Source: a virus (taxonomy: Duplodnaviria; Caudoviricetes). Taken from it: a stretch of 53,639 bases of DNA. The stretch spans positions 1 to 53,639 of IMG/VR virus record IMGVR_UViG_3300021225_000313. One strand, given 5' to 3'. Position 1 is the stretch's first letter, and each line of letters opens with the position of its first letter. The position numbers and the translations under genes are program-made. The notes under the pieces were generated by a model, which worked only from the letters and a program-made list of their open reading frames with translations, was not told the origin of the DNA and did not search any database. Positions 34,650-52,872 of the stretch are shown here, piece after piece.

Positions 34650-34661
34650 AAATTTATTTTA

Positions 34662-35261: not shown

Positions 35262-35273
35262 ATCAGATAAATT

Positions 35274-36002: not shown

Positions 36003-36052
36003 ATCAGATAAATATGAAAAATTTTGTTTATTTTTTATCAAATCTAAAACAT

Positions 36053-36721
36053 ATGAATGAAAATACACTAAAAAAGAAAAAACAATTAATTAGAAAAGAA
36101 TTAAGAAAAAAAGGTATATTACCTGAATATGGACAACCATTAAATGATGAACAAACTGTAATATGGAAACAAATTAGACAAGGCAATTTTAATGTAAAAG
36201 AAATATTAAAAAACCAAAACATAAAAAAAGAATGCAAAAAATGCGGTGAAACAGATACTTTAAAGTTCTATCATAATAATAAAAGCAAATGCAAGAAATG
36301 TTCATTATTGGAATTAAAATTGAAATATGAAAATAATGAATTAGGTAATGTTTATAAAAAAGCTGAAAATTGGAGAAATTTGAATTTTATTCGTGTGAGA
36401 GTATTACAAGCAAAACATAGAGCAAAAAGAAAAAAACTGGAATTTGAATTAACAGATAATATCATTGAAGAAAAATTAAAAAACCAAGATGGAAAATGCT
36501 ATATAACAAGAATACCATTAGTACTTACTGCAAATAATTGGGCAACTATGTCAATAGATAGATTGGATTCTAATCTTGGTTACACAATTGAAAATACTAT
36601 ACTTGTAACATGGTTTATAAATCAATCAAAAAATAAAATGTTATTGAATGAATTTATTGAACACATGAAATTGTGTTATAAAGGAATTACTGAAAATCCG
36701 ATATTTTATGAAAAAAATTAA
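36053..36721 (+). CDS. HNH/His-Me finger endonuclease-like protein
   Basis: CKKC...CKKC; QDGKCYIT and SIDRLDSNLGYTIEN...INQSK. Confidence 0.7.
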   Translation: MNENTLKKKKQLIRKELRKKGILPEYGQPLNDEQTVIWKQIRQGNFNVKEILKNQNIKKECKKCGETDTLKFYHNNKSKCKKCSLLELKLKYENNELGNVYKKAENWRNLNFIRVRVLQAKHRAKRKKLEFELTDNIIEEKLKNQDGKCYITRIPLVLTANNWATMSIDRLDSNLGYTIENTILVTWFINQSKNKMLLNEFIEHMKLCYKGITENPIFYEKN

Positions 36722-36798
36722 AAAATTTTTTTTTCACTTTTGACCTAATTTTTGGATTTTTAGAAAAAAATTAAAAAATTTTTTTTTCACTTTTGACC
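36710..36798 (+). repeat. perfect 36-bp direct repeat
   Basis: GAAAAAAATTAAAAAATTTTTTTTTCACTTTTGACC at 36710-36745 and 36763-36798. Confidence 0.85.
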
Positions 36799-36887
36799 AG
36801 GAAAGTCAAGTTTTCAGATTTTTTTTAAAAAAATTTCTGTTAGGGGATTGACCCCCGTCCTAAGACCTTGAAAAAACACATATATAA

Positions 36888-36968
36888 GGGGGGATACGGA
36901 GGGGGAGGGGGGTATGTTCCTTGGCAGGAGGGGGGTTAATAGGAAAGGGGGGACGTATATGTCCCCCC
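36888..36968 (+). other. G-tract cluster ending in a hairpin
   Basis: Five runs of 5-6 G; GGGGGGAC-gtatat-GTCCCCCC hairpin at 36947-36968, probable terminator of 36977-37492. Confidence 0.7.
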
Positions 36969-36976
36969 GTTATCCT

Positions 36977-37492
36977 TTACAGGATTTCGTATTTGATTCC
37001 GTTCATGGATACCTCTTTAAGGGAGTCAATCATGAAGGATTTCGGGTCATGTTTGTTTACCTGAGGTTGACGGGACGTTTGGGATTTCTTTACCTCAAAG
37101 GAAACGAAAACGTTTCTGTCAATCGGATTTCCCTCAAAGGTATATTCCGATTTGATGTTTGAGGTATCGAAGGTAAAGTATTGAAGGTAATAACGATTCA
37201 ATTTTTCATTGAATTGTACACACTTAGAAACGTGGTCACCTACCTTACATTCCTCAGATACAAAGGTACGTTCCATACCCTCTTTTTCCATACGGTTATT
37301 AACCATATCCTCATAAGACCCCCCGATAAAGTAGTTACCCTTTGAGGTCTTAAATACCTTGTCAAAGTAAGGATTTCCACCTTTGTTCATCCGTACTTTC
37401 GTTTCTGAAACGATATTAACAAAAGTAGGTTTGTTAACATTTTTCAGGATTTCGAGGATTTCTGTCTTTGATACTTTCATTACGTTACTCAT
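36977..37492 (-). CDS. early-type hypothetical protein (paralog of 48646-49218)
   Basis: 171 aa, no Ala; shares MNKxGNP and NxxEKEG motifs; own minus-strand promoter at about 37513-37544. Confidence 0.8.
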   Translation of the reverse strand: MSNVMKVSKTEILEILKNVNKPTFVNIVSETKVRMNKGGNPYFDKVFKTSKGNYFIGGSYEDMVNNRMEKEGMERTFVSEECKVGDHVSKCVQFNEKLNRYYLQYFTFDTSNIKSEYTFEGNPIDRNVFVSFEVKKSQTSRQPQVNKHDPKSFMIDSLKEVSMNGIKYEIL

Positions 37493-37728
37493 AGTGTGTT
37501 TGTTTGTGAATACAAAACTATAACCTTTATTTCAATCCACCAAATTTATTTTTAGTTTTTTTGAAATTATTTTTTGGGTATGTCTTTTTGATATTTCCAA
37601 ATTTTTGGGTCTATTTTTTTTTCAAAACTTCTTTGGCGACCCCCTCAAAAAAAGTTTGAAAATAGTTGAATTAATTTTTGGTAATATGAAATATCCATTT
37701 TATCTTTGAGTTCTAAATCACACACACC

Positions 37729-37995
37729 ATGAAAGTAAATGTTGTCTTCTCTTTCATCCACATGACGGACAAAAGTAATAATGATGTACCCGTTTGGGTT
37801 CCTCAAGGAACGATGTCCCAATCCTTTGAGATGGAAACCGATATCGAACAAATCTTGAATAACCTGAAACGGTTTAACTTTATCGTAATGAATAAGATAG
37901 GTAATGAATTGGTTGATATCAATAATACTTACGGTGACAATTTTAACCGATACGAATATATCGACCACGAAGTATTCGAATGTGTCCCCGAATAG
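37729..37995 (+). CDS. early-type hypothetical protein
   Basis: Promoter upstream; terminator GTCCCC-gaata-GGGGAC-T8 overlapping the stop; no Ala. Confidence 0.75.
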   Translation: MKVNVVFSFIHMTDKSNNDVPVWVPQGTMSQSFEMETDIEQILNNLKRFNFIVMNKIGNELVDINNTYGDNFNRYEYIDHEVFECVPE

Positions 37996-38310
37996 GGGAC
38001 TTTTTTTTATTTCCCCCGTGAATGTTCCTTGGCAGGTTTGACGTGATTAGAGACGTTTTAAGACCGTTTACCCGTGTTTGTGTGTGTTGACCTTAATTGA
38101 GGAATAAACGTTCAGGAAGGGGTACAGAATCAATCCACAGATGAACTGAAACAATATCCATTCAGGTGGGGATGAATTGACCATTCGAACGTGGATTTTA
38201 GGTGGGGGTATCCTATCAACCCCGCCAAAGAACTTTTCGAAAATAAATCACGTCTGAAATTTGGTAGTTTCATTTCTCCCGTATATCTTTGTATTCTAAA
38301 TCACACACAC

Positions 38311-38511
38311 ATGACCACACAACAATTCGTTGAGAAGTACAGAATGAGGAGAAAAGACCCAAAAGACCTGAAAAGGGAGGTGGAGATTGGAATCCTCTCA
38401 AAACTATCTGACCTTCAGATGTTTTGTGGTGAAAATGACAGAGTATTCATCAACCACATCAAAGAGTTCGTAAGTGACTACTTTGAAATAGAAGAAACCC
38501 CCTCCGAATAG
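38311..38511 (+). CDS. early-type hypothetical protein
   Basis: Start trimmed to MTTQQF after the promoter; terminator follows; no Ala. Confidence 0.7.
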   Translation: MTTQQFVEKYRMRRKDPKDLKREVEIGILSKLSDLQMFCGENDRVFINHIKEFVSDYFEIEETPSE

Positions 38512-38627
38512 GGGGTTTTTTTTGTTCCTTATCCAACCTCGCCAAAGAAATTTCTGAAAATAAATTCAAATAAAATTTGGTAGTTTCAAATGTTCTTTAT
38601 ATCTTTGAGTTCTAAATCAATCACACC

Positions 38628-38789
38628 ATGTGTAACGTCATCAACACCGTCCTTTGGATTGTAGGAATCCTCATCATGATTTGGTCCATCATGGGGTTCG
38701 TCATGTTCTACGAACAGTATCGTATCAGTGAGTACAAGAAAATTCGGAGGAAGTGGAGAGAGTTTGACGAACAAAACACCCCTGAATAA
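38628..38789 (+). CDS. 53-aa membrane protein absent from the ORF track
   Basis: MCNVINTVLWIVGILIMIWSIMGFVMFY...; flanked by promoter and terminator. Confidence 0.7.
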   Translation: MCNVINTVLWIVGILIMIWSIMGFVMFYEQYRISEYKKIRRKWREFDEQNTPE

Positions 38790-38905
38790 GGGGTTTTTTT
38801 TGTTCCTTATCCAACCTCGCCAAAGAAAATCCTTCAAAAATATTTGGTCTGAAATTTGGTAGTTTCAAATGTCTTACATATCTTTGTATTCTAAATCAAA
38901 CAAAT

Positions 38906-39145
38906 ATGACTGAAACATTCATGACATTCGGGAGTACAAAAAGTGACACTTTCAGACAGTTGAAGAGTGGTCATTGGGTGGGTGATACATGGGGAGGTAA
39001 AACCTTCACATCAGTTGAGAAATTTGAAAAAGGTTCCACGGGAGGGGAACGGTTCAGGGATATTGAGGTGAGGGAGTCCACAGAGGAAGAAAAAAAGGAG
39101 TTCACGGACATCCTAATTTTTAGGATTAACAAACCGTCCATCTAA
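38906..39145 (+). CDS. early-type hypothetical protein
   Basis: Promoter-ORF-terminator unit; no Ala. Confidence 0.7.
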   Translation: MTETFMTFGSTKSDTFRQLKSGHWVGDTWGGKTFTSVEKFEKGSTGGERFRDIEVRESTEEEKKEFTDILIFRINKPSI

Positions 39146-39269
39146 CCCCGAAAGGGGTTTTTTCTTGTCTTACACTCAACCCCGCCAAGGAAATATCACC
39201 AGATAAAGTTTGTCTGAAATTTGGTAGTTTCAAATGTCTTACATATCTTTGTATCCTAAATCAAACGAT

Positions 39270-39479
39270 ATGTTACAAGATGTTTGGACAGAAGAAGGAA
39301 TGGAGGGTGAAGAATTGGTTGTCGGACAAACCACGGGTTGTGGATGTTGTACGTACAATGTCCACGGAAAGGTGAGTGTCACAGATGAACTGAAAAACAA
39401 CATGAAGTTTATCCTGAAGTCGTGTCAGATTTTGGGTATCACCCTTGAAGAACTTAAAACAATGGTGGAAGAAAAATAA
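39270..39479 (+). CDS. early-type hypothetical protein (GCGCC amino-acid motif)
   Basis: Start trimmed to MLQDVW after the promoter; no Ala. Confidence 0.7.
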   Translation: MLQDVWTEEGMEGEELVVGQTTGCGCCTYNVHGKVSVTDELKNNMKFILKSCQILGITLEELKTMVEEK

Positions 39480-39643
39480 AACAAGATATTCGTGTGTTTT
39501 GATTTGGAGTCCTACCCGAAAGGGTGGGATTTTTTTTTGGTATTACACCCAATCCCGCCAAAGAAGTTTAACCAGAAATAGTTCGTTCGAAATTTGGTAG
39601 TTTCAAATGTCTTACATATCTTTGTATTCTAAACAAACATACT

Positions 39644-39787
39644 ATGAAAATCAAGACACACAAAGGGTACAAGAGAGATGAACAAGTAAACCAAGGGATG
39701 TACGATGGACGTTTCCGTCCCAAGGTGGTAATGGACAAAAAGAAAAAGGAAAACAAGTTCGGATGTCGGAAAAAGTGGGGGGAGTGA
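39644..39787 (+). CDS. 47-aa basic protein absent from the ORF track
   Basis: MKIKTHKG...GMYDGRFRPKVVMDKKKKE...; directly after the promoter. Confidence 0.7.
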   Translation: MKIKTHKGYKRDEQVNQGMYDGRFRPKVVMDKKKKENKFGCRKKWGE

Positions 39788-39984
39788 AATCCCTTCACTT
39801 TAATATGACACGTAAACATATTGTCGTGTCGTGATTTAGACGAGACCCCTGTCCGATGAGGATGGGGGTTCTTGTTTGTGGTAACTGACCCAACCTCGCC
39901 AAAGAAATTTCTGAAAAAAAAGATGAATTAAAATTTGGTGGATTCAAATCTATGATATATCTTTGTATCCTAAATCAATCACAT

Positions 39985-40176
39985 ATGAAGTACATTATCG
40001 TTTGTCTCCTGATGTTTGTAGTGTTCACCCCTATGTACATTTGGTACGGGTTAAAGACCATTTGGAATTGGGAGGTGGATAAAAACATTCACGAATTAAA
40101 CGGAGTTGTAAGAAGAAGGACATTCTACACAAAAAGAAAGTTGTTCCCTCAAAAACATTACCCGACTATGTATTGA
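39985..40176 (+). CDS. small membrane protein
   Basis: MKYIIVCLLMFVVFTPMYIWYGL; unit architecture. Confidence 0.7.
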   Translation: MKYIIVCLLMFVVFTPMYIWYGLKTIWNWEVDKNIHELNGVVRRRTFYTKRKLFPQKHYPTMY

Positions 40177-40310
40177 AAACTAACCCCCTGAAGAAGGGGG
40201 TTTTTTTTGTTTCACATCCAATCCCGCCAAAGAAGTTTTTTCAAATAAATCTGAAATAAATTTGGTAGATTCAAATATTCATTTTATCTTTGTATTCTAA
40301 ATCACACAAT

Positions 40311-40688
40311 ATGAAAAAGACGTATCTCCTTCAGTACAAGTTTTCAACGTCCAAGGGTATCTATACCAACGGATGGAAAATCTGTACCTTGAAAGTAAAC
40401 CTGAAAAAAGTTTCCTCATGTATGGGAGGGGGTTATGACATGAAAGGAACAAATTTGGGGAATTGGATTGAAAAAGAATTTCAGGAAGAACTGAAGACCC
40501 TCGACCCTCGAAAGTATTACGGAATGTCATATGATGAAGACGGTACGGTAATCCTCAACGGTTCGTGTGGGTTCACCTCAATGGAATCAATCCTCAACGG
40601 GTTGGGGTACAAAATCAATCAACTCCCAACCAAAGGAAGTAACAAATTCCTTGATATGTCCAACGACTTTGAAGTGACCCCCATATAA
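40311..40688 (+). CDS. early-type hypothetical protein
   Basis: GGGYDMKGT motif; unit architecture; no Ala. Confidence 0.75.
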   Translation: MKKTYLLQYKFSTSKGIYTNGWKICTLKVNLKKVSSCMGGGYDMKGTNLGNWIEKEFQEELKTLDPRKYYGMSYDEDGTVILNGSCGFTSMESILNGLGYKINQLPTKGSNKFLDMSNDFEVTPI

Positions 40689-40804
40689 GGGGGTTTTTTC
40701 TTTTTATACCCGTAACCCGCCAAAGAACTTTTTTCAAAAATAGTTTCTCCAAAGTTTGGTAGATTCAAATATTCATTTTATCTTTGTATTCTAAATCACA
40801 CACT

Positions 40805-40924
40805 ATGACTGAATATGGACCCACCTTCGACATCATTGTGACAATCGTTGAAATTGTTTTGGGGGTTGTCGGACTTTATTGTTTCTATCTAATAGACAAA
40901 GAATTGAAAAAAATATACAGATAA
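40805..40924 (+). CDS. 39-aa membrane protein absent from the ORF track
   Basis: MTEYGPTFDIIVTIVEIVLGVVGLYCFYLIDKELKKIYR, directly after the promoter. Confidence 0.6.
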   Translation: MTEYGPTFDIIVTIVEIVLGVVGLYCFYLIDKELKKIYR

Positions 40925-40953
40925 TTGAAAAATTAAAATTAAATTCATATATT

Positions 40954-41091
40954 ATGAAAAAAATAATCTTTTTGTTTTTTATTTCCTTTGTTTTTTCATC
41001 GTGTCTTACAACAATGACAAGGGTTGGGAATTGTAAATATTATTACCGACCTTCAATGAAGGATAAAAAATGGAGACATTTAAGTTATTAA
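40954..41091 (+). CDS. small putative lipoprotein
   Basis: MKKIIFLFFISFVFSSC lipobox-like signal. Confidence 0.6.
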   Translation: MKKIIFLFFISFVFSSCLTTMTRVGNCKYYYRPSMKDKKWRHLSY

Positions 41092-41092
41092 C

Positions 41093-41440
41093 ATGGATAA
41101 ATTTACATCAAGTGGTTACGTCTATGGACTTGACCAAAACGGGGATGAAACGACCCGTTTGACCCCTAATTTTGAGTCTGACAATTATGACGACCTAATC
41201 CTTCAAATAAACGAAAGTCTTGAAAATGGAACCCTAATAAAAGAAGGTACTCTTCAAAAGTTCCTTGGCGCGGTTATGTACATCGAATCGACCAAACAAG
41301 GGGAAGACGGGAAAACAAACTTCATAAGTAATTACGTAGAATTTGGAGAATTGACAGAATCCCAATCAGACATAATTTATGAACAGATTTTCAAAGAAAT
41401 GTTTGACGGTTGGGATGACCCTGCCAATGAAATACTATAA
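41093..41440 (+). CDS. early-type hypothetical protein
   Basis: Its only two Ala codons lie in or abut GCCAANGAA motif copies. Confidence 0.7.
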   Translation: MDKFTSSGYVYGLDQNGDETTRLTPNFESDNYDDLILQINESLENGTLIKEGTLQKFLGAVMYIESTKQGEDGKTNFISNYVEFGELTESQSDIIYEQIFKEMFDGWDDPANEIL

Positions 41441-41497
41441 AAATAATTCGTCCAAAATTTGGTAGTTTCAAATGTGTGATATATCTTTGTATTCTAA

Positions 41498-41887
41498 ATG
41501 AAACGACAGATGAACACTATCAAGAACATGATGGACAAAGGACAGAAACTGTTTCAGAACCTGTACGTGGAATTTCAGGGGGAAGACATTGTGTCTTTCA
41601 ATGTAATCCCAAGTGATTCATCCCTTGACCTTCAAACGGTTAAGTCAATCGTATCCGACTTGAAGGAACAAAAAATGTTTACCCTTCAGGAAGATGTCCC
41701 CCACATGGAATTAGGGGTATCGATTGAAAGAACCACACATTTCTCGAAATCCCCGTCCTATATCATTGAAACCTTTCACGTCAATTTGGAAGACATGGAC
41801 GATGAATATGGATTCAAAAGAAATTTGAACGTTCCGAAACCCCTTAATGAGTTCATCGGGGTGGACGAACCCGTTACGACTGTGTGA
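41498..41887 (+). CDS. early-type hypothetical protein (paralog of 48108-48506)
   Basis: Shared DVPxMExGV, IETFHxNL and DDxxGFxRNxNxPKPL; start may be 41510. Confidence 0.8.
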   Translation: MKRQMNTIKNMMDKGQKLFQNLYVEFQGEDIVSFNVIPSDSSLDLQTVKSIVSDLKEQKMFTLQEDVPHMELGVSIERTTHFSKSPSYIIETFHVNLEDMDDEYGFKRNLNVPKPLNEFIGVDEPVTTV

Positions 41888-42035
41888 TTATGTTTGTAAA
41901 ACCCTGATGTTTCTACATCGGGGTTTTTTCTTTCCCTTACCCAACCTCGCCAAAGAAATTTGGTAAAATAAATCTTGTTCAAAATTTGGTGGATTGGTAT
42001 AACTAACATATCTTTGTATTCTAAACAACAAACAA

Positions 42036-42380
42036 ATGACACAGTACGAAATTTGTATTACCGTTCAGTCAATTCTGAAACGTGAATTTGATGTAAAAGA
42101 AACGGTTGAACTTCTGAAAAAGTCCAAAGGTGTTTTCACCTATTTCTCATGGGGTGTGTCCAAAATGATTAACGTAAATAACAAGGGATTGTTATTGAAA
42201 GTGTCAGGACATCATCACAAAGGGTGGGTGTTGGTTACCCTCAATTATTCGGATTATTATGACGTACACATCATATCCAACAAAGGAGAGGTGAAGGACG
42301 AATTTACGGATATCTTTTTCACTGATTTGTGTGAAACGATTGATAACCGTATCGAAAGAATACCGATGTATAGAGATTGA
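42036..42380 (+). CDS. early-type hypothetical protein
   Basis: Unit architecture; no Ala. Confidence 0.75.
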   Translation: MTQYEICITVQSILKREFDVKETVELLKKSKGVFTYFSWGVSKMINVNNKGLLLKVSGHHHKGWVLVTLNYSDYYDVHIISNKGEVKDEFTDIFFTDLCETIDNRIERIPMYRD

Positions 42381-42523
42381 TTCATGGTGTGATTTAGATG
42401 GTGACCCCGACCCAAAAGGTTGGGGTTCTTCATTTGGTGTCACATCTCGCCAAAGAAATTTCCCAAAATATTGGGTTGTACTTCTCAATATTCCGTTTTA
42501 TCTTGTTGAAAATTAAATATCTT

Positions 42524-42652
42524 ATGACAAAGGAAATGATTTTAACAAAGATTAACCAAGAAAAAAAGATTGTAAGACGGTTGTGGAATTTATTTATATG
42601 TGTTTCCGTGTTTGTCTTGTTTTTCTTTTTATCTTTAATTATATTATCATAG
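42524..42652 (+). CDS. small membrane protein
   Basis: Start trimmed to MTKEMIL; C-terminal TM helix; degenerate promoter. Confidence 0.55.
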   Translation: MTKEMILTKINQEKKIVRRLWNLFICVSVFVLFFFLSLIILS

Positions 42653-42799
42653 GGTGTTAAGTTTGGAATCCCCTGGTGTGTCTACATCGGGGGAATTTTT
42701 TTGTCATACCCCGCCAAGGAAATTCCATGAAAAATAAATGAATTAAAATTTGGTAGTTTCAAATGTCTTACATATCTTTGTATTCTAAATCAATAACAC

Positions 42800-43000
42800 A
42801 TGATTGAAGTTTCAAGAAAGTCAGACCTCACGGGAAAGATGAACGTCATGACACTCAACACCACCAAGGAACAACTGAATCGGTATTACAACGGTGAAGG
42901 TCTTGTTCAGACTTTATTCCCACATCTCACTGTTGAGGAAAGGGAGTTCCTCAAGACGGGTATCACACCAAAGGAATGGAAAGATATGTTTGGGGAGTAA
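42800..43000 (+). CDS. small phage protein
   Basis: FPHLTVEEREFLKTGITPKEW motif; unit architecture. Confidence 0.75.
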   Translation: MIEVSRKSDLTGKMNVMTLNTTKEQLNRYYNGEGLVQTLFPHLTVEEREFLKTGITPKEWKDMFGE

Positions 43001-43117
43001 CAATCCCCTTTTTTTTTACCTTGTCATAACCTGCCAAAGAAATTTCTGAAAATAAATTGAAATTAAATTTGGTAGTATCAAATAATTGTTTTATTTTTGT
43101 GTTCTAAATCACACACC

Positions 43118-43357
43118 ATGACAACAATTAATGAAATCTTGTTAAACTTTAAAGAAGTAAAAATTCAAGAAGATGTTCACGAAATAGAGTTAAAGGGTTC
43201 ATTTTTATGGAACCACCGACATAACTATGGTGGATTTTTCAACTATGGAAATGAAAGAGGTTTATCTATTGATAATATTTGGATAACTTCTGAAACAGGG
43301 GATTGTCTATATGACCATATAACTATTAATGGATTTAAAGTTTACAAACAAAAGTAA
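43118..43357 (+). CDS. early-type hypothetical protein
   Basis: Start trimmed to MTTINE. Confidence 0.7.
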   Translation: MTTINEILLNFKEVKIQEDVHEIELKGSFLWNHRHNYGGFFNYGNERGLSIDNIWITSETGDCLYDHITINGFKVYKQK

Positions 43358-43429
43358 ATACAAAATATTCCATTCTTAATTTGGTAGTATCAAATAATTG
43401 TTTTATTTTTGTGTTCTAAATCAAATGAC

Positions 43430-43636
43430 ATGGAACTAAACACAAAGGAAAAAGTTAAAGAACACGTTGAATTTGAATTTGAACAAATGTTGGTTAAAGT
43501 GTACGAATCCAACAATGTTACAACGGGGGACATTTTACCCCATCAACATCTTCAATGGGAAGATTTGATTGAGAAAACGACAAACCTGTTCATGGAATTG
43601 TTGAACCAAAATAAAGAAATCGAAAAGGAGGTTTAA
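43430..43636 (+). CDS. early-type hypothetical protein
   Basis: Start trimmed to MELNTK; own promoter without the upstream motif. Confidence 0.7.
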   Translation: MELNTKEKVKEHVEFEFEQMLVKVYESNNVTTGDILPHQHLQWEDLIEKTTNLFMELLNQNKEIEKEV

Positions 43637-43743
43637 CCCTCCTTTTTTTATGACCTGCCAAAGAAATTTCTGAAAATAAATTGAAATTAAATTTGGTGGT
43701 TTCAAATGTTCTTTATATCTTTGAGTTCTAAATCAATCACACC

Positions 43744-44019
43744 ATGGGTATCAGAATCAGGAATCATTGGATTATCCCGACCGTCCACAACTTTGACGTA
43801 AAGTACAATGACTGTTCTTTGTCCGTTAAAGTGACCGTGGACGAAACAAAGGAAAGTTTCGAAACGTCTCTGAACTATGTTTTGGAGGGTTCTTTGACGG
43901 AAACCGAAATTGACGAGGTTCTTTCATATGTCCGAAAGAAAATCATGGATAACGAAAACCTTTTACCCACCTTCATTCCGATTGAAACCGTGGATGTGGA
44001 TGGATGTGAAGTGTTCTAA
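43744..44019 (+). CDS. early-type hypothetical protein
   Basis: Unit architecture; no Ala. Confidence 0.7.
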   Translation: MGIRIRNHWIIPTVHNFDVKYNDCSLSVKVTVDETKESFETSLNYVLEGSLTETEIDEVLSYVRKKIMDNENLLPTFIPIETVDVDGCEVF

Positions 44020-44150
44020 AAGAAGGGGAGAAATCCCCTTTTTTTCTTTTTTGTCCGTACCCTGCCAACGAACATTCCCAAAATAAATTCCTCCAAAATT
44101 TGGTGGAATGAAAATTAGGTTATATCTTTGTATCCTAAATCAAACATACC

Positions 44151-44660
44151 ATGATTATCACATCCGATTTTTCGAAGATTATTTCCACACCCGAACTGAA
44201 AGACAGTGTACGTGAAAAAATTTCCGAAGGTGAAGAGGTATTGAGTTTTTCATATACCGATTACGGTGGTGACTTTTTTGATAAAGTAGGAATCGAATAT
44301 TTTATCAAACATTATCCTGATAATATTGTATGGGAACATACAATCTATTCGGGAAAGAATGGAATCATTTTCGGTGACGTGGTGAAAGAATTTAAGGAAG
44401 AATATGAATCCTATCCTTTGGGATTTGATGACATTGAATCCTTTTATTACGAAATGACCAATGAAGTTGAACATGAAGACTTTACACGGTTCATTGAAGA
44501 CATAAAAAGTAAATATGTTGTCTCCGATGAATGTATGAATTGGTTAATCGATAATAAGAGTGGATATTATTCCATCACGACACAAGGGTTGGATTTTTGT
44601 TACTCTGACCTGATTAAAGAATTGGAATCGGAAGGATTGGTAACAAAAATTGAAGATTGA
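44151..44660 (+). CDS. early-type hypothetical protein
   Basis: 169 aa, no Ala; GAAA-loop terminator follows. Confidence 0.8.
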   Translation: MIITSDFSKIISTPELKDSVREKISEGEEVLSFSYTDYGGDFFDKVGIEYFIKHYPDNIVWEHTIYSGKNGIIFGDVVKEFKEEYESYPLGFDDIESFYYEMTNEVEHEDFTRFIEDIKSKYVVSDECMNWLIDNKSGYYSITTQGLDFCYSDLIKELESEGLVTKIED

Positions 44661-44798
44661 TAGACAGACCCGACCGAAAGGTTGGGTTTTTTTTTGTCTT
44701 ACATCCAATCCCGCCAAAGAAAATTGTGAAAATAAATTCAATTAAAATTTGGTAGTTTCAAATGTCTTACATACCTTTGTTTTCTAAATCAAACGAAC

Positions 44799-45002
44799 AT
44801 GATTATCGAACTTAATTCAGTAGGAAGTGTTGTGGATGACCAAACGTTGATGGTGTATCCCAAAAGACAAGATGGTACTATTGAGTACGGTGTGAACGGT
44901 GTACCCCTGATGGAAACCTGTGATGAATGGGTTGAATCCTTGGACGGGGATGACATCTTTACCGTAATGAAGTTGATTGAATCGGAAACAAAAAAGGGTT
45001 AA
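44799..45002 (+). CDS. early-type hypothetical protein
   Basis: Unit architecture; no Ala. Confidence 0.7.
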   Translation: MIIELNSVGSVVDDQTLMVYPKRQDGTIEYGVNGVPLMETCDEWVESLDGDDIFTVMKLIESETKKG

Positions 45003-45120
45003 CCCCCTTTTTTTTGTGTCTTACATAAACCTGCCAACGAACATTCCCAAAATAAATCCCGTATAATTTTTGGTATATTCAAATATTCGTATTACCTTTG
45101 AGTTCTAAATCACACACATC

Positions 45121-45384
45121 ATGGGTAACGTTCAAGTTTGTATCCTTAATAATGAGTCCGTTAATGACGTTGAACTCGAAAAATTCGTGATTGATGTCAA
45201 ATATAAGGACATTCACGACATTGTAAATAAGGTGGATGAATATTGTGATGAATATGAATTGGTGGATACATACGTCTATATTATTTCCGATGACTTTACA
45301 CGGGACGAAATAAATTACTTGGAAGATTATTGGGTATTCGTACACAGAACGGATGAAGAAGTTCGTTCAAAAATGTTTGCATAA
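45121..45384 (+). CDS. acidic early-type hypothetical protein
   Basis: Promoter upstream; single Ala as the last residue. Confidence 0.7.
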   Translation: MGNVQVCILNNESVNDVELEKFVIDVKYKDIHDIVNKVDEYCDEYELVDTYVYIISDDFTRDEINYLEDYWVFVHRTDEEVRSKMFA

Positions 45385-45439
45385 TATTTTTGTAGTCTAA
45401 AAAATCTATTATATTTTTACATTCAAAATCCACAACACC

Positions 45440-45946
45440 ATGTTACAGTCTATTGAAGAATTTATGACCCTTCATTCCAAACTGATTCAAAAGATGTTTC
45501 AAGACCTTGGAGAAATCAGACCTTTTTTGGTTCTGATGGGGGATAACGAAAAAGATTGTCAGGTAAAACCTGTTATCATTCCGACCATGTTTTTTGAAAC
45601 CGAAATCGGGAAAACATTTGTAAAATCTGTCATACTGAAAAAAGAAATTGACGAATTGAAAACTGATGGGTATGAATTGAGGTGTGTTTCATTCAGTTCA
45701 GAATGTTGGATGAAAAAAATCGTTGTGAACAAAGAAGGGATAAAAGTTGAAAAAGACATTGAAGTTGTTGTGGTGTCATACGAAATGAAAGGAGATTCGT
45801 TATTTCAAGTTTACGAAATCAAACGTAACATGAATATAACTGAAAACGGGTTGGAAGAAAAACCGACATTGGAATTGTGTGAAACAATATCGAATAACAA
45901 AAATGTTCACTTTGAAGGGATGATGACAAAACTATTCCAAGAGTAA
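45440..45946 (+). CDS. early-type hypothetical protein
   Basis: 168 aa, no Ala; weak similarity to 46087-46518. Confidence 0.75.
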   Translation: MLQSIEEFMTLHSKLIQKMFQDLGEIRPFLVLMGDNEKDCQVKPVIIPTMFFETEIGKTFVKSVILKKEIDELKTDGYELRCVSFSSECWMKKIVVNKEGIKVEKDIEVVVVSYEMKGDSLFQVYEIKRNMNITENGLEEKPTLELCETISNNKNVHFEGMMTKLFQE

Positions 45947-46086
45947 TACAAGAGGGGGGAGAAATCCTCCCTTTTTTTTGTCCACGTATTACCTGCCAAA
46001 GAATATTCGTGTCATATACACATCTCAAAATTTGGTAGAATCAATATATTGTAATACCTTTGTACCCACAAATAAAATAAAATTAA

Positions 46087-46518
46087 ATGTATCAAGTTCT
46101 GAAAAAAGTTGTTGAGAAACAAGTCATTCAAGAGTATCGAAAGAATGGAGTGGTGAAGAACAAGGTAATTCTCTTGGCACTTGATGAAGACGATACGATA
46201 TCCTTCTGTCATAAAGATTTACCAAAAAATGATGGAAGTAATGACGATGAATTTTTCGATAAGTTTGTGAAGACACAAAAGATTATCGACAAACTTGTTG
46301 TGAAGGTCTCAGAGGACGGTTATCGGGTTAAAACGATGGTGGTGGTAGATTATCATGAATCGGACACAGACGACTATATAAGTCTCTCATTTAAGTCAGG
46401 GAAGGGGTTCCAAAATGTGGTGAATATAAATTACTACATCCAAAAAACTCCCACGATGATATCGGATGATGGTGTGATGGTGGTCAGTCAACCAACATTA
46501 ATTGAAGTGTCAGAATAA
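46087..46518 (+). CDS. early-type hypothetical protein
   Basis: 143 aa; sole Ala lies in a TTGGCA variant motif. Confidence 0.75.
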   Translation: MYQVLKKVVEKQVIQEYRKNGVVKNKVILLALDEDDTISFCHKDLPKNDGSNDDEFFDKFVKTQKIIDKLVVKVSEDGYRVKTMVVVDYHESDTDDYISLSFKSGKGFQNVVNINYYIQKTPTMISDDGVMVVSQPTLIEVSE

Positions 46519-46657
46519 ATATAAATTCCCCAATAAAACGGGGAATTTTTTTTAAATATATTCACGGTGCCAAAGAATATATTAATAAAATAAGTACAAA
46601 AATATTTGGTAGTCTCAAATATCCATTATATCTTTGTATTCACAAAAAACAAAAACT

Positions 46658-46858
46658 ATGTTGGTAAAAGATGTAATCAAAGAACTGAAAAATGTTAGTC
46701 ACATTTATTCTTATGTGAAGTTCAACAAGAATCACGGTGAGTACGTGAGGGTGATGAAAATCGAACTCCTCAACGAAATCCTGAAGAACATGGATGAAAA
46801 CTCAAAAATCAAATGTGAGATTGATACCGAACAAGGGGTAGCCTACATCGGTGGATAA
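46658..46858 (+). CDS. early-type hypothetical protein
   Basis: Start trimmed to MLVKDV. Confidence 0.7.
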   Translation: MLVKDVIKELKNVSHIYSYVKFNKNHGEYVRVMKIELLNEILKNMDENSKIKCEIDTEQGVAYIGG

Positions 46859-46995
46859 GATAAATTCCCCTGACCGAAAGGTCGGGGGTTTTTATTTCCC
46901 CTCCAACCTGCCAAAGAAGATTAAAAAAATAAATCTGAAATAAATTTGGTAGTATCAAATGTCTGTTTTATCTTTGTATCCTAAATCAAAACAAA

Positions 46996-47517
46996 ATGAG
47001 TAGAATTAAATTAAAAAACATCAAGTTTTCGGAGTGGAATTCTGAAGAGACAAATTGTTTTCAGGCAGACATCTACTTCGACAATAAAAAGGTAGGGTTT
47101 TGTTCCAACGATGGACATGGTGGTAGTACATATTGTCAATGGATTGGTGTGGAAACCAAAGATAAGTTCATAGAGATGGAAGAATATTGTAAGACACTAC
47201 CTGACATTGTGTACAAGAATGAGGGACGTGAGGACTTCATAATGAAGAGTGATTTGGAGAACGTAGTGGATACGTTATTTGAAGAGTGGTTGGAACAAAA
47301 GAATAAGAAGAAGATGGAGAAGTACTTTGAGAAAGGTGTATGTTTCGGTACAAAAAACCAATACAGAATCAGTTCGTTCAAAAGTGGAGGTAAATTAATT
47401 ACAATTAGTCAGTTATGTGAGAGTATAGTTGGTCGGACTATGTTAGAGAAACATTGTGAGAGTTTGAAAAAACAAGGACACATCATCCTCAATACCAATC
47501 TTCCATTCAAAGTGTAA
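46996..47517 (+). CDS. early-type hypothetical protein
   Basis: SEETNCFQAD...NDGHGG motif; one Ala in 173 aa. Confidence 0.8.
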   Translation: MSRIKLKNIKFSEWNSEETNCFQADIYFDNKKVGFCSNDGHGGSTYCQWIGVETKDKFIEMEEYCKTLPDIVYKNEGREDFIMKSDLENVVDTLFEEWLEQKNKKKMEKYFEKGVCFGTKNQYRISSFKSGGKLITISQLCESIVGRTMLEKHCESLKKQGHIILNTNLPFKV

Positions 47518-47640
47518 GAAAAGGGGAACCACCCCTTTTTTTGTTACACAACCTGCCAACGAACATTATTCAAAAATACTTGGTCTAATATTTGGTAGTA
47601 TCAAATATCTGTTTTATCTTTGTATCCTAAATCAAAACAT

Positions 47641-48000
47641 ATGACAGACATTTTCAAATCAGTGAACGAAAGTATTTTCAAAGGGGTAAAAGGAATATCG
47701 TGGTACGATAAGGACGGTATCATGAATTTGGATGAAACAAGGTATGTTCGTTTTCTCCTTGACGATATCGGAACAAAAGACTACTATGTAGGTTATTGGG
47801 TTGAAGTCTACAATAGAAACAATGGATTGATATCCAAAAAGTTTTTCAGGTTTCAATATCACATGGAATTTATTCATCAACGTGATAATTATTATCACAT
47901 TTGGTATTATCGGGGTAATTTAGAATGGTACATATCAAGACCAAAGGATACCAAACAATATGTTAAAATCCTTATGGACTACATAGAAAAAATAAAATAA
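47641..48000 (+). CDS. early-type hypothetical protein
   Basis: Start trimmed to MTDIFK; no Ala. Confidence 0.75.
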   Translation: MTDIFKSVNESIFKGVKGISWYDKDGIMNLDETRYVRFLLDDIGTKDYYVGYWVEVYNRNNGLISKKFFRFQYHMEFIHQRDNYYHIWYYRGNLEWYISRPKDTKQYVKILMDYIEKIK

Positions 48001-48107
48001 GGGGGAAATCCCCTTTTTTTTATATCCGACCTGCCAAAGAAGATTTAAAAAATAAATTTGGTAAATTCAAATATACATTATATCTTTGTGTCCTAAATCA
48101 ATCGGAA

Positions 48108-48506
48108 ATGAATGTACTGTCAAAAATGTGGTTAGGGTTCAGACTTCCCCATCGTGACCTTGTTCTGACCTTCAAAGGTAAAGAGTTGGTAAATTATCGT
48201 GTGAACGAAAATGGACGGGAAGATTACACTCCCGAATTGGTTCGGGATTTGATTCAGGAACTGATTAAACAAGGTATGATTACCTTCTTTGATGACGTTC
48301 CGAACATGGAAGTGGGTGTACCCATCCATACAATCGGAATTGTCGATGAAGACGACCCCAAAGATGAAATTATGTACATCGAAACGTTCCATCGGAATTT
48401 GGATAACTTGGATGATGATTTTGGTTTTGAAAGGAATGTGAACATCCCCAAACCACTCCATGAGTTTTTGGGATTCCCGAAACCCATCAAAGATTCGGAC
48501 TACTAA
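48108..48506 (+). CDS. early-type hypothetical protein (paralog of 41498-41887)
   Basis: Shared C-terminal motifs; no Ala. Confidence 0.8.
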   Translation: MNVLSKMWLGFRLPHRDLVLTFKGKELVNYRVNENGREDYTPELVRDLIQELIKQGMITFFDDVPNMEVGVPIHTIGIVDEDDPKDEIMYIETFHRNLDNLDDDFGFERNVNIPKPLHEFLGFPKPIKDSDY

Positions 48507-48645
48507 AAGGAACGACCCGACCGAAAGGTTGGGTTTTTTCTTTTTCCCCTACATCGCGCCAAAGAAATTCTCAAAAATAAAATTGAATAAAATTTGGTGG
48601 ATTCAAATATGTCACATATCTTTGTATCCTAAATCAATAACGATT

Positions 48646-49218
48646 ATGGTTACAGATTATCAAGTACAAGAGTCCGTGAATGTTAAAGAAGTAACGACCA
48701 CGGAACTGACCAACATTCTCCTTCAGGTAGGGGTAACGGTTGACCTCAAGTCCGACTTTGTGAATGTAGTGATGGAAACCGAACCTTCCATGAATAAGAC
48801 GGGTAACCCGTTCATCGGGAAGGTGAAAAAACTTTCCTCACGGAACTACAAACTCCTCATGGACTACGAAAAAAGGGTACGTTCCAATGAAAAGAAAGAA
48901 GGGTTGACCCCCGACTTTGTTACAGAGAAACCCAAAGGTAAACATCACATTTCTCCCCTCGTTCTGTTGGACGATAAGACGGAAAGTGTCCACTACCTCA
49001 ATCTTGAGTATTTTGTGGAAGTGAAACCGATTGTGTCCTATTCCTTCAATGACCTTCCCATGACCAAGGAAGATGAGGGATTGATGAAACAATTCTTTGT
49101 AAAGAAGTATCAGAGTCAAAAACAGGAACAGGACAGGAAGGTGGAAGTTATCACACCGAAAATATCGAACATCAAACAGATGTCGATGGGTGGGGTGAAG
49201 TACATCGTCAAAAACTAA
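48646..49218 (+). CDS. early-type hypothetical protein (paralog of 36977-37492)
   Basis: Start trimmed to MVTDYQ; FVNxVxET, MNKTGNP and C-terminal SMxGxKY; no Ala in 190 aa. Confidence 0.8.
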   Translation: MVTDYQVQESVNVKEVTTTELTNILLQVGVTVDLKSDFVNVVMETEPSMNKTGNPFIGKVKKLSSRNYKLLMDYEKRVRSNEKKEGLTPDFVTEKPKGKHHISPLVLLDDKTESVHYLNLEYFVEVKPIVSYSFNDLPMTKEDEGLMKQFFVKKYQSQKQEQDRKVEVITPKISNIKQMSMGGVKYIVKN

Positions 49219-49287
49219 AACAAAGGGGGGTAATTCCCCCTTTTTTTATTATATTTGATTATTCGTTGGCAGTAATACAAAAACAAT

Positions 49288-49632
49288 ATGACCACATTTT
49301 TCTTAATCATCATCATCCTCACCCCATTAATATTCCTTGGCGCGATATGGGATAAATACACAAAACAAAAGGAGGAATTGATGTTCCTACAAAACATAAA
49401 TGAAAGTAATATCGAAATAATCAAACATCAATCCGATTTGATACGTATAAAGGACGAAATGTTAGTCCTCAATACGGAAACGATTAATAGGATGGATAGT
49501 ATGATACAGTCTCAGGAAGACATGATTAAGACCCAAAAGGAAGTAATACAAGAACAGAACGGTATCATTGATTCAAACATAAACCATATCAAGGTACTCG
49601 AAAATATTGTCAAGGTAAACGAATTCAGATGA
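49288..49632 (+). CDS. membrane-anchored coiled-coil protein
   Basis: N-terminal TM helix and 7-residue periodicity; sole Ala abuts a reverse motif copy. Confidence 0.7.
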   Translation: MTTFFLIIIILTPLIFLGAIWDKYTKQKEELMFLQNINESNIEIIKHQSDLIRIKDEMLVLNTETINRMDSMIQSQEDMIKTQKEVIQEQNGIIDSNINHIKVLENIVKVNEFR

Positions 49633-49737
49633 GTTCGTAGTACACGGACATGCCAAAGAAGTTTCCAAAAATAAATCTGATTAAAATTTGGTAGTTTCAA
49701 AAATACATTATATCTTTGTATTCTAAATCAAATTTAT

Positions 49738-50301
49738 ATGGGAGAAGTAATTACAGAAAAGGTTGTCGGTAACCACATTATTCGTACCTTTTATGACGAA
49801 TGTCCTTACAATCCCCGTGAGAACGACAATTTGGGAACAATGGTGTGTTTCCATAGACGTTATTCATTGGGTGATAAACATGACTACGATTCCAATGACT
49901 ACAAAGGTTGGGATGAAATGGAGAAAGCCATTATCAAAAATGAGAATGTCGGGGTTATCCTTCCCTTGTATCTTTATGACCACGGAGGAATAACAATTTC
50001 CACAAGTCCTTTCTCATGTCCATGGGATTCAGGACAAATCGGATTCATATTCATTTCCAAAAAGAAAATGTTGGAAGAATATGGAGGAAAGATTGTAACC
50101 AAAAAACTGAAAGAAAGGGTTGAGGGTTACTTGAAAAATGAAGTGGAGGAATATGACCAATACCTTCGGGGTGAAGTGTACGGTGTGAGGGTATTTGAAA
50201 AGGAATTGGATGAGGACGGGGATGATGTTGAAGTACATTCATGTTGGGGATTCTACTCGGAGGAGGATGCCATTGAGGACGGAATGTGTTATGTAAAATA
50301 G
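49738..50301 (+). CDS. phage hypothetical protein
   Basis: DNLGTMVCFH, LYLYDHGG and CPWDSGQIG; unit architecture. Confidence 0.8.
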   Translation: MGEVITEKVVGNHIIRTFYDECPYNPRENDNLGTMVCFHRRYSLGDKHDYDSNDYKGWDEMEKAIIKNENVGVILPLYLYDHGGITISTSPFSCPWDSGQIGFIFISKKKMLEEYGGKIVTKKLKERVEGYLKNEVEEYDQYLRGEVYGVRVFEKELDEDGDDVEVHSCWGFYSEEDAIEDGMCYVK

Positions 50302-50554
50302 TTTGTGTTTTGTTTGTTATACCCCTATCCGAAAAGGATGGGGGTTTTTTGTTGTTAACCCACAATGTTGTTTGGCATCGTATTACGTACATTTGTGTTC
50401 TGTGTAATTTGTTGTGGTTATTGATGTACTATCCCCTGGTGTTTCAACACTGGGGGTTTTGTATTACTGCCAAAGAAATTACAGAAAATAAATTCAAATA
50501 AAATTTGGTAGATTCAAATATTCGTTTTATCTTTGTATTCTAAACATAAACACA

Positions 50555-50791
50555 ATGGATAAAAAAACAATTAATAAAGTTTGGAATAAGTATCAAAAGA
50601 ATGAGTCAAATAACGACCATTCGGAGAATGTCTTATTACTCGCCAAAACATTTGGTACTGATGAGGATGTTGCTGAAGCAGAAGACATCCAACATAAACA
50701 TGATTCCATTGGATATATGACAACAGACCTTTTGAAAAGGAGGGATTTTTTACATAATAAATTTTATCCTATTCTTGTCCGTTTCAGATAA
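50555..50791 (+). CDS. hypothetical protein spanning the right edge of the GpC-poor zone
   Basis: Last TAnnTTTG promoter; ordinary Ala codons resume at about 50672. Confidence 0.7.
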   Translation: MDKKTINKVWNKYQKNESNNDHSENVLLLAKTFGTDEDVAEAEDIQHKHDSIGYMTTDLLKRRDFLHNKFYPILVRFR

Positions 50792-50823: not shown

Positions 50824-51012
50824 ATGAAAAAGACGGTAACAATTTATGAGTTGTATGAAAAAGAGTTCAATCAGCCAACATTTATTGGGTTTCTGCAAGG
50901 TCATAGAACGCCTGACAGATTTCATGGGGTGACATTGAGCAAAAAAACCGCTGAACAGTGGGTGAAAAAAAGTGAAATGAATTATTATCGTATAAATAAA
51001 AGTGTAGAATAA
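50824..51012 (+). CDS. hypothetical protein
   Basis: TACCTTTA box at 50798. Confidence 0.65.
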   Translation: MKKTVTIYELYEKEFNQPTFIGFLQGHRTPDRFHGVTLSKKTAEQWVKKSEMNYYRINKSVE

Positions 51013-51064
51013 ATTTGGTAGATTGATATAAACGTATTACCTTTATATCCTAAAGATAAACAAA

Positions 51065-51229
51065 ATGAAGTATTTAGTAAGTTGGATAATTTGGGATAGA
51101 ACTAACCCTGAATGGAGACCTATTTATAAATTTCAAAAGTGTAGCACATTAATCAAAGCAAATAGAATGAAAACTAATCTATTAAAACAAACTTCTTTTA
51201 TAGAGGTAACAATAAGTGAAATAGTATGA
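51065..51229 (+). CDS. 54-aa protein absent from the ORF track
   Basis: MKYLVSWIIWDR...; promoter 51014-51045; ATGA overlap with the next gene. Confidence 0.6.
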   Translation: MKYLVSWIIWDRTNPEWRPIYKFQKCSTLIKANRMKTNLLKQTSFIEVTISEIV

Positions 51230-51528: not shown

Positions 51529-51612
51529 ACAAAGAAATACTTGTAGAAGTTACTGTAAAATAAATTTGGCAGTTTAATATAAACGTATTACCTTTACATA
51601 AAATAACATATC

Positions 51613-51813: not shown

Positions 51814-51823
51814 ATGAAAAAAT

Positions 51824-52042: not shown

Positions 52043-52053
52043 ATTGAAATAAT

Positions 52054-52284: not shown

Positions 52285-52316
52285 ACATTATACCTTTATA
52301 TTCTAAATAGATTAAA

Positions 52317-52820: not shown

Positions 52821-52872
52821 ATTTGGTAAAATTAAATAAACATTATACCTTTACATTCTAAAACACAACACA

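Follow-up and report, generated by a model that had tools for sequence, protein, structure and literature searches.

A GC-depleted, nearly alanine-free block of putative early genes in a lineage of jumbo phages

Avoidance of short palindromes is a classical feature of phage genomes, reportedly described by Sharp in 1986 and by Rocha and colleagues in 2001, and Staphylococcus phage K is GATC-free. T5-like phages are restricted only via sites in their first-step-transfer DNA, according to a passage of PMC10644984, and a published hypothesis set out in a part of 10.1101/866236 holds that this DNA lacks the sites of the A1 protein of T5, which would itself be a restriction-type nuclease. A shorter word is read by CviJI of chlorovirus IL-3A, which recognizes RGCY (R, purine; Y, pyrimidine) and in its relaxed form CviJI* recognizes GC (an excerpt of PMC3681635). 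Here we analyze DNA of a virus of the Caudoviricetes in which the dinucleotide 5'-GC-3' (GC hereafter, base content being written G+C) has been lost almost entirely from a 14-kb block of genes. The window, by which we mean the whole stretch of DNA that was analyzed, is IMG/VR record IMGVR_UViG_3300021225_000313, a stretch of 53,639 bp. This is ~19% of the genome by CheckV, corresponding to a full genome of ~280 kb, and the block occupies positions 36544-50670.

In kind this would be target-site avoidance in pre-early DNA. Its form, the loss of a two-base word together with an amino acid, is unprecedented as far as our literature search shows; in the full-text literature (main texts, supplements aside) we found no description of GC-dinucleotide avoidance in a phage or of alanine-free early proteins. 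The block resembles the first-step-transfer DNA of T5 and BF23 in having small putative host-takeover genes that would be read by the host RNA polymerase and in having been purged of targets, and first entry into the cell is hinted at. There are also hints of two copies of the block per genome, and the boundary is gene-free and rich in repeats, again as in T5. Unlike T5, what has been purged is a dinucleotide and not a set of 4-8-bp sites, an amino acid vanishes, and the rest of the phage genome is two-fold depleted as well. A further difference is that the predicted host belongs to the Bacteroidota and the phage is a jumbo phage of ~250-360 kb. The locus also shows the hallmarks of classical site avoidance, with GATC, CCGG, CTAG and AGCT depleted and the sets differing among relatives. 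It departs from that pattern in that the word has two bases, the loss is complete in only one module, and alanine disappears as a by-product.

The number of GC dinucleotides was compared with that expected from base composition, and the ratio observed/expected is given as O/E. The 14,127 nucleotides (nt) of the block are expected to hold 440 GCs and hold 42, an O/E of 0.10. In 1000 mononucleotide shuffles of the block the mean count was 440.2 with a standard deviation of 17.3 and a minimum of 385, placing the observed value at z = −23. The loss is peculiar to GC among the dinucleotides. CG is near expectation (381 of 440, 0.87), while CC and GG are raised (O/E 1.63 and 1.42), and at 35.5% the block has a higher G+C than the left (26.9%) or the right flank (30.4%). 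Most surviving GCs are associated with a single motif, GCCAA/TTGGC, which encloses 34 of the 42. Three others abut it (41270, 48556 and 49342), and five lie away from it (45379, 46841, 47065, 49927 and 50269). Classed by their neighbors 2 are RGCY, 4 are YGCR and 36 are RGCR/YGCY, and TGCA occurs once in the block and has 109 copies in the left flank. That flank (1-36543) holds 398 GCs with 646 expected (O/E 0.62) and the right flank (50671-53639) has 55 with 67 expected (0.82), so that the block lacks targets that are present elsewhere in the record. Yet a set of 127 unrelated viral and metagenome loci has a median GC O/E of 1.18.

A preliminary description of this DNA had put about 42 GCs in the block where several hundred should occur, about 37 of them in or abutting GCCAA/TTGGC and five unrelated to it. 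It had also found CG, GG and CC to be common, the G+C no poorer than outside, and all reading frames and intergenic DNA to be affected. Counting bears out all of this, and the computed ratios are clearly dissimilar inside and outside the block. The flanks had been taken to be ordinary, which is incorrect for the left flank. The purge is regional, as had been stated, in so far as it is complete in the block, but it is superimposed on a depletion that extends to the whole lineage.

All codon phases and the non-coding DNA of the block are depleted. The coding set comprises 29 open reading frames (ORFs) of at least 60 amino acids (aa) with 3267 codons in total, two of which are probably antisense artefacts. 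Alanine codons make up 0.34% of these, NGC codons (N, any base) 0.06% and junctions of the form NNG/CNN 0.06%; 19 of the 29 ORFs contain no GC whatsoever. Of the 42 GCs, 32 are in the spacers that separate each terminator from the start site after it, and ~10 are in transcribed DNA. The corresponding values for the 11,734 codons of the left flank are 2.52% alanine, 0.28% NGC and 0.58% junctions, and about three quarters of the coding GCs there are alanine codons. For the nine ORFs between 50555 and 53302, at the right, they are 3.69, 1.32 and 1.32%.

Three candidate causes were rejected. A sequencing or assembly artefact is excluded because all or part of the stretch was recovered in 20 runs from 13 studies, with homologous blocks in independent assemblies. 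A translational cause such as loss of tRNA-Ala is excluded because off-frame and non-coding GCs have been purged too. General anti-restriction streamlining of the block is excluded by the counts of ACGT (48), TCGA (35), GTAC (55) and CATG (52), all of which are at expectation. The GC depletion of the block is real, statistically overwhelming and conserved.

In the left flank the extent of the depletion depends on the neighboring bases. The lowest O/E values are those of AGCT (0.06), AGCC/GGCT (0.28), GGCC (0.33) and AGCG/CGCT (0.35), with milder loss for AGCA/TGCT (0.52) and GGCA/TGCC (0.71), and values of 1.23 for both TGCA and TGCG/CGCA. The loss is therefore graded, with O/E in the order RGCY < RGCR/YGCY < YGCR, and it is two-fold symmetric. 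Control phage loci of low G+C give 1.43 for AGCT, 1.06 for AGCC, 1.21 for GGCC, 1.40 for AGCA and 1.10 for TGCA. AGCT and AGCC/GGCT are the lowest of the non-CpG NGCN classes in the left flank of the window and in all five relatives that we analyzed (Table 1). The YGCR class is the highest in four of the six records; in G003 and G004 GGCG or GGCA is higher. The symmetry extends to the sense strand of the long ORFs, where O/E for GCT is 0.26 and for its complement AGC 0.24 in the window, and 0.37-0.51 and 0.31-0.44 respectively in the relatives. Alanine in the window is encoded less often by GCT (45) than by GCG (50) despite a G+C of 27%, and the base preceding an alanine codon is less often A (51) than T (136). 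Two-fold symmetry of this kind argues for a dimeric reader of double-stranded DNA and not for an RNA-cleaving enzyme. The targets of CviJI and CviJI* show a similar hierarchy. CviJI* spares YGCR; in the flanks of our window RGCY is hit hardest and YGCR least, with 27 RGCY sites in the 36.5-kb left flank and 2 in the 14-kb block, where every class of GC has been lost. CviJI is a virus-encoded and very frequent cutter. Chloroviruses shield their own DNA by methylation and not by loss of sites.

The window is plainly also under classical short-palindrome (restriction-site) avoidance, by both zero-order and Markov models. GATC is absent, with 86 expected in the flank and 45 in the block (96 and 51 by the Markov model), as is CCGG with 11 and 14 expected (Markov 13 and 21). 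CTAG and AGCT occur 7 and 5 times, each with ~131 expected; the left flank accounts for the 7 and the 5, with 86 expected there for each. These avoidances vary from record to record. There is no GATC in the window, G001 or G003 but 113 in G002, and 0-1 CCGG in the window and G001 but 224 in G003.

Selection against GC is evidently still acting. An alignment of the homologous blocks of G002 and G005 has 326 differences in 4,193 nt, yet the two sequences contain only 2 and 4 GCs. Since 11.3% of the possible single substitutions in the block create a GC, ~37 would be expected (P = 4e-10). Among the block variants listed for close strains in metagenomes, a small sample, none of 26 created a GC.

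The relatives were found by scanning a viral collection for the motif and promoter pattern of the block, followed by screening of composition, and five records were analyzed whole. Their CheckV completeness implies jumbo phages of ~250-360 kb. G002, G004 and G005 have many proteins in common with the window, which are 40-80% identical and syntenic, and G001 has few (36-47% identity). All five have a genome-wide GC O/E of ~0.5-0.6. In the long ORFs of the six records alanine is 2.2-3.7%, compared with 5.2% in a control of 156 ORFs from GC-normal phage loci of low G+C. NGC codons are 0.25-0.54% compared with 1.67%, and the O/E of GC across codon junctions is 0.26-0.48 compared with 1.04. GC depletion is lineage-wide, and the surviving coding GCs are nearly all alanine codons. 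GC-free blocks recur as well. In G002 positions 68569-74424 comprise ten consecutive minus-strand ORFs that lack both GC and alanine, one of which encodes a 286-aa DUF932 protein. This GC-free block is also present in G005, with patchy versions in G001 and G004.

The promoter scan provided 98 independent loci, 20 of which have a GC O/E of 0.65 or below. At least four proteins in common with the family are found in 19 of these 20, compared with 15 of the other 78 (Fisher P = 3.5e-10), so the trait follows the phage lineage and is not shared by all phages with Bacteroidota-type promoters. A megablast search of 36000-51000 against GenBank phages gave no match. A loose search of metagenome contigs for the motif and promoter pattern gave 119 stretches, with a single match listed in each, and none was GC-poor. 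In 16 viral loci that encode a protein related to ORF 52317-52820, the only GC-free block is that of G001. GC avoidance may reach beyond the phage family of the window. LR745206.1 (L286), a 635-kb uncultured phage that has only a lysin in common with the window, has a GC O/E of 0.59 over 69312-110112. Within the 41 kb examined alanine is 3.0%, NGC codons are 0.36%, the junction O/E is 0.41, TGCA occurs 28 times and GGCC is very rare (3). Separately, the GC-free block of G002 is flanked by a gene (80950-82365, plus strand) for a 471-aa protein with GmrSD_N (DUF262) and HNH domains, of the type IV restriction kind; this was seen in one of the five relatives.

The block is an array of ~27 one-gene cassettes, each having a Bacteroidota-type host promoter and its own terminator. 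A cassette starts with a hairpin formed by a C-run and a G-run, free of GC, and a T-run. After ~15-20 nt this is followed by yGCCAAnGAA, and then by 35-36 nt, TTTGGT (−33), a 20-nt spacer, TAnnTTTG (−7) and a further 26-29 nt before the ATG. The leaders, of the form TTCTAAATCA...ATG, have no Shine-Dalgarno sequence. The consensus for the primary sigma factor of Bacteroidota is TTTG (−33)/TAnnTTTG (−7), with mRNAs lacking a Shine-Dalgarno sequence (part of PMC6847099), and the cassette promoters fit this sigma-A in both elements, in their usual spacing and in their leaders. Plus-strand copies of GCCAAnGAA number 25 in the block, from 38224 to 50469, and a promoter lies behind 24 of these. By script the distance from motif to TTTGGT is 35-36 nt in 21 of the 24 and the spacer between −33 and −7 is 20 nt in 22; for two of the three exceptions in distance the script had picked an earlier TTTGGT, according to the sequence listing. 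There are 67 terminator-like sites over 36500-53639, compared with 12.4 ± 4.0 in shuffles, and the terminator stems avoid GC too. This arrangement, in which every gene has its own Bacteroidota-type promoter and terminator, is that of a host-takeover (pre-early) module. The best reading is that the block is the immediate-early host-takeover module of an uncultured, Bacteroidota-infecting freshwater jumbo phage, the timing of expression being inferred from this architecture. The RNA run X20 has 28 contigs that match inside and outside the block, and has no bearing on its transcription.

The proteins of the block contain ~0.3% alanine, so that ~30 proteins are nearly free of this amino acid; the 24 ORFs behind motif promoters have 9 alanines in 2431 residues. 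The gene at 36977-37492 has a paralogue at 48646-49218, and G002 and G005 carry homologues of it with 40% identity in their GC-free blocks. The 187-aa protein has homologues without any alanine, encoded in the GC-free blocks of G002, G004 and G005. A homologue with 70% identity in a phage contig of normal GC (L148) has seven, the differences including A to S and A to V replacements. PHROGs and Pfam scans covered the 10 largest of the 29 block ORFs. Their sole match was phrog_6186, of unannotated function, with no named PHROG family, and no homologues of the T5 pre-early genes A1, A2 and dmp were found in this set. An Atlas look-up of the early proteins returned only 'hypothetical' clusters. 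AlphaFold models of two early proteins were poor, with predicted local distance difference test (pLDDT) scores of 53.5 and 61.6 from four-row alignments, and a Foldseek search of the latter against the PDB gave no matches at E <= 0.001. Strains differ in the order and content of their cassettes. Joints in metagenome contigs from runs X1-X3 (window positions 38500-52900) skip or reorder cassettes, as in 43701->50790, 44045->49744 and 41929->40217. The reshuffling presumably occurs by recombination between the near-identical promoter units.

The motif GCCAAnGAA, at about −72 to −64, is a putative lineage-specific operator or activator site in which a GC is tolerated. G001 carries the same unit of motif plus promoter. 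In G002 and G005 repeats of the type CCCAGTAAT, which contain no GC, lie upstream of the same kind of promoter, and the blocks are even emptier of GC. Since these blocks are purged equally with a GC-free motif, the GC of GCCAAnGAA is incidental to the purge, and the earlier idea that GC is retained in one regulatory motif as part of the system does not hold. In the window one reversed copy, TTCTTTGGC, with its GC at 37636, lies in the divergent region 37500-37728. Other reverse-oriented copies (TTCCTTGGC / TCTCTTGGC) occur within the coding regions of three cassettes, at 41265-41270, 46174-46178 and 49337-49342; these and two adjoining GCs make up half of the ~10 GCs in transcribed block DNA. 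G001 has tandem arrays of GCCAARGAA with a period of 46-48 nt upstream of early cassettes, seven copies at 65678-65967 and three at 68210-68310, which suggests a multi-site binding platform for whatever reads the motif.

There are hints that the block lies at a terminal, duplicated or leading end of the genome. The first is sequencing depth. In all three DNA runs compared, from three studies, the depth of block contigs among those listed was about twice that of the left-flank contig (22-37 vs 11.2, 21-37 vs 13.8 and 26-35 vs 14.2), contig depth not being a copy number; one left-flank contig (X3, record 25) extends to 37727. No pile-up of contig ends is listed for the 24 runs, all of them represented by contigs. 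Secondly, several cultured large phages have a homologue of the 187-aa gene at most a few kb from a genome end, and in Caulobacter phage RBC63 it falls within the terminal repeat as annotated. Thirdly, a 23-nt conserved element, GGGGTCAAT(N4)TAACAGAAAT, is located at the left edge of the block. Distant relatives have the element next to their GC-free blocks too, at 79479-79501 in G002 and 14752-14774 in G005, and it was seen in L244 and L203. It is possible that it is a terminus, packaging or regulatory site. The boundary region also contains a hairpin GGGGGGACG...CGTCCCCCC at 36947-36968. The endonuclease-like gene that abuts the block, at 36014-36721, is not purged of GC (O/E 1.27, with six NGC codons), and is probably a mobile gene of the homing type that arrived recently. 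Beyond it the genes of the left flank are mostly on the strand opposite to the array. At the right GC resumes at 50672/50678, within ORF 50555-50791, as had been noted. Little weight can be placed on the abruptness of this, as the GC-free part of the ORF is only ~115 nt, in which 2-4 GCs are expected; the last cassette promoter (50469-50554) is an equally good candidate for the right edge.

Table 1. Features of the window, with coordinates, and the related records with their lengths.
Feature	Coordinates or length	Strand	Remarks
Left flank	1..36543	.	Lysins, glycosyl- and methyltransferase cluster, thymidylate kinase, large proteins without assigned function
Endonuclease VII/HNH-like gene	36014..36721	+	phrog_1035, E 1.3e-22; abuts the desert
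GC desert	36544..50670	.	42 GC vs 440 expected
Gene-free boundary region	36720..36975	.	Direct repeat of an A/T-tract unit (~36720-36800), G-runs, hairpin
Conserved element GGGGTCAAT(N4)TAACAGAAAT, 23 nt	36833..36855	-	Edge of the desert, near G-runs
Leftmost early gene (putative), 171 aa, 0 Ala, 0 GC	36977..37492	-	Divergent from the array
Divergent promoter region	37500..37728	.	Motif between minus- and plus-strand -33/-7 promoters
Single-gene cassette array	37729..50554	+	Terminator, motif, promoter and ORF per unit
Early gene (putative), 187 aa, 2 Ala	49738..50301	+	phrog_6186, E 4.7e-29
Last cassette promoter and ORF (50555-50791, 78 aa, 3 Ala)	50469..50791	+	GC resumes inside
Right flank, small ORFs without cassette promoters	50824..53302	+	Least GC-purged part of the window
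G001 (L012)	79 kb		CheckV completeness 24%
G002 (L270)	131 kb		CheckV completeness 39%
G003	117 kb		CheckV completeness 46%
G004	97 kb		CheckV completeness 27%
G005	39.5 kb		CheckV completeness 12%

The explanation that we prefer, and in which we place roughly even confidence, is avoidance of a GC-centered, CviJI-like DNA-targeting activity that is complete in a T5-like pre-early module. The whole lineage would be under negative selection against GC in its double-stranded DNA, with the preference RGCY > RGCR/YGCY > YGCR. Such a grading is the hierarchy expected of a CviJI/CviJI*-like reader of two to three bases, which would most simply be a nuclease. In most genes the avoidable GCs would have been removed and the alanine codons left, and in the pre-early module the alanine would have been removed as well. 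Pre-early DNA would have to stay intact and be transcribed while naked and just injected, before any protection made by the phage. We infer that the reader is a nuclease, and that the module either is the first DNA to enter the cell or is part of a terminal repeat. Given that the trait tracks the lineage while avoidance of GATC and CCGG varies, we lean toward a reader that does not change within the phage lineage and may be the phage's own host-DNA-degrading enzyme, the arrangement that has been hypothesized for A1 of T5. A more specific version can be put forward only tentatively. The lineage might carry its own enzyme that cuts or marks GC, with a preference for RGCY, and is directed at the DNA of the host during the first minutes after infection; the module would be a self-immune template while the enzyme is active, and probably a first-delivered terminal repeat, expendable as the first-step-transfer DNA of T5 may be. 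The preliminary description had deduced strong DNA-level selection on a defined early-gene block, a conclusion now strengthened by the symmetry, the ongoing selection and the host-type promoters and terminators. Its suggestion that a leading end evades defenses directed at GC-core targets, as in T5, remains the closest analogue; only the hints of two-fold depth and of homologues near genome ends suggest a terminal position.

Several observations weigh against this explanation. Within the window purging is weakest in the right flank, downstream of the last early promoter, so the gradient is not simply one of order of entry. The G002 block contains an island of normal GC at 74584-76314, with four ORFs and 41 GCs, and the early region of G001 is a mosaic; a cost per gene fits these better than a cost per segment. 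One 222-aa ORF of the island, also present in G005 (~11126-11791), is 93% identical between the two and has no Pfam match. A cost per gene could mean loss of a template in an expendable repeat copy, or a modification or nick that blocks transcription. No GC-specific nuclease or methylase was identified in the window or in ~465 kb of the relatives, no search having been aimed at CviJI-type enzymes. Thousands of GCs and dozens of RGCY sites would remain in a ~280-kb genome, and a nuclease for which one cut kills fails to explain a two-fold depletion. Finally, the GCs of the motif (YGCY/RGCR) belong to a class that is purged elsewhere in the block, and their tolerance requires a bound protein or an untranscribed position.

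The rival that fares best, although we consider it unlikely, develops one put forward in the preliminary description. It proposes that virion DNA is modified or nicked at GC or RGCY and is poorly read by host RNA polymerase, so that genes read from the incoming DNA are GC-free and later genes are read from fresh copies. The per-gene character of the effect, seen in the islands and mosaics of the relatives' early regions, is well accommodated, and the symmetry of the depletion suits a methylase-type reader as well as it suits a nuclease. There is a C5 methylase in G002, which among solved structures is closest to M.HaeIII and M.HhaI, the match being confined to its catalytic part, and there are N6/N4 methylases in G001, G002 and G003. 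Yet no gene for a C5 methylase, an N6/N4 methylase or TGT/DpdA was found in the window (~19% of the genome); among the five relatives TGT is in none and a C5 methylase in only one. T5-like virion DNA does carry site-specific nicks, according to a passage of PMC10644984. The total avoidance of GATC, CCGG and CTAG, however, shows that modification does not give the DNA broad protection, and the right flank, which is purged only weakly, lies downstream of an early promoter. Nor do we know of any evidence that plain 5-methylcytosine stops a bacterial RNA polymerase.

The constraint could alternatively act on RNA, with an endoribonuclease, either a host toxin or a phage shutoff enzyme, cutting transcripts at GC, the most crucial early ones avoiding it and the motif GCs surviving in untranscribed spacers. 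RNases with GC-containing targets exist, such as MqsR with GCU, and such an enzyme would account for the confinement of most surviving GCs to spacers and for the avoidance of GC in terminator stems. We regard this as more unlikely still. The two-fold symmetric preferences for flanking bases on the sense strand, where GCT is depleted to the same extent as AGC, are not expected of a reader of RNA, and the reverse-oriented gene at 36977-37492 and gene-free DNA have been purged as well. The spacers outside the motif are also free of GC, which is a weaker point as the spacers repeat one another.

We attach a similarly low probability to mutational decay, in which GC would be hypermutable, e.g. through GpC methylation and deamination, and the fast-evolving early ORFans would have decayed furthest. 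CpG decay is an established precedent (part of PMC4804638), and the depletion of a self-complementary dinucleotide throughout a genome with regional differences is a likeness to vertebrate CpG. The depletion is moreover graded by constraint, with alanine codons surviving in conserved genes and avoidable GCs lost everywhere, and a C5 methylase is present in one relative. Against this the deamination products GT and AC are not in excess (in the block O/E is 1.04 for GT and 1.07 for AC, in the left flank 0.98 and 0.87), and the G+C of the block is higher than that of the flanks. ORFs to the right of the block that are equally small keep normal alanine and GC, and the replacement of alanine is often by serine, a transversion. 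Taken together these four features argue against deamination-type decay and also against relaxed constraint. Vertebrate CpG is depleted to roughly a fifth. The near-zero level here, with O/E of 0.00-0.02 maintained over kilobases despite 326 substitutions, and the missing GC-creating substitutions differ from that case and would need a far faster loss.

The remaining suggestion, that GC is removed elsewhere to confine the factor that reads GCCAAnGAA (or a GC mark) to promoters, draws on the 37 of 42 GCs in or beside the motif, its fixed distance of 35-36 nt from the −33 element and the tandem arrays in G001, but it is very improbable and close to refuted, because the homologous blocks of G002 and G005 are equally GC-free with the GC-less CCCAGTAAT, a 9-nt site needs no removal of every GC dinucleotide, and the genome-wide RGCY-preferring depletion is unrelated to a motif whose GC is of the YGCC type.

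A constraint at the level of DNA that deletes one of the 20 amino acids from ~30 proteins is an extreme natural experiment. It bears on the tolerance of proteins to the loss of alanine, on the shortest DNA word that can be read, and on the demands made on the first phage DNA. Avoidance of a GC-reading activity predicts that Bacteroidota systems include an enzyme, of host or phage, with GC or RGCY in double-stranded DNA as its target, and such cutters are rare and useful. GC-free, alanine-free blocks would be a signature of pre-early modules, and of probable leading ends, in uncultured jumbo phages. The puzzle of how first-step DNA of T5 escapes the destruction of host DNA becomes testable in a second, unrelated lineage. 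If the reader is indeed encoded by the phage, the block would be natural 'orthogonal' DNA, a bacterial-virus counterpart to the frequent cutters of the chloroviruses, and would answer how T5-type phages spare their own first DNA.

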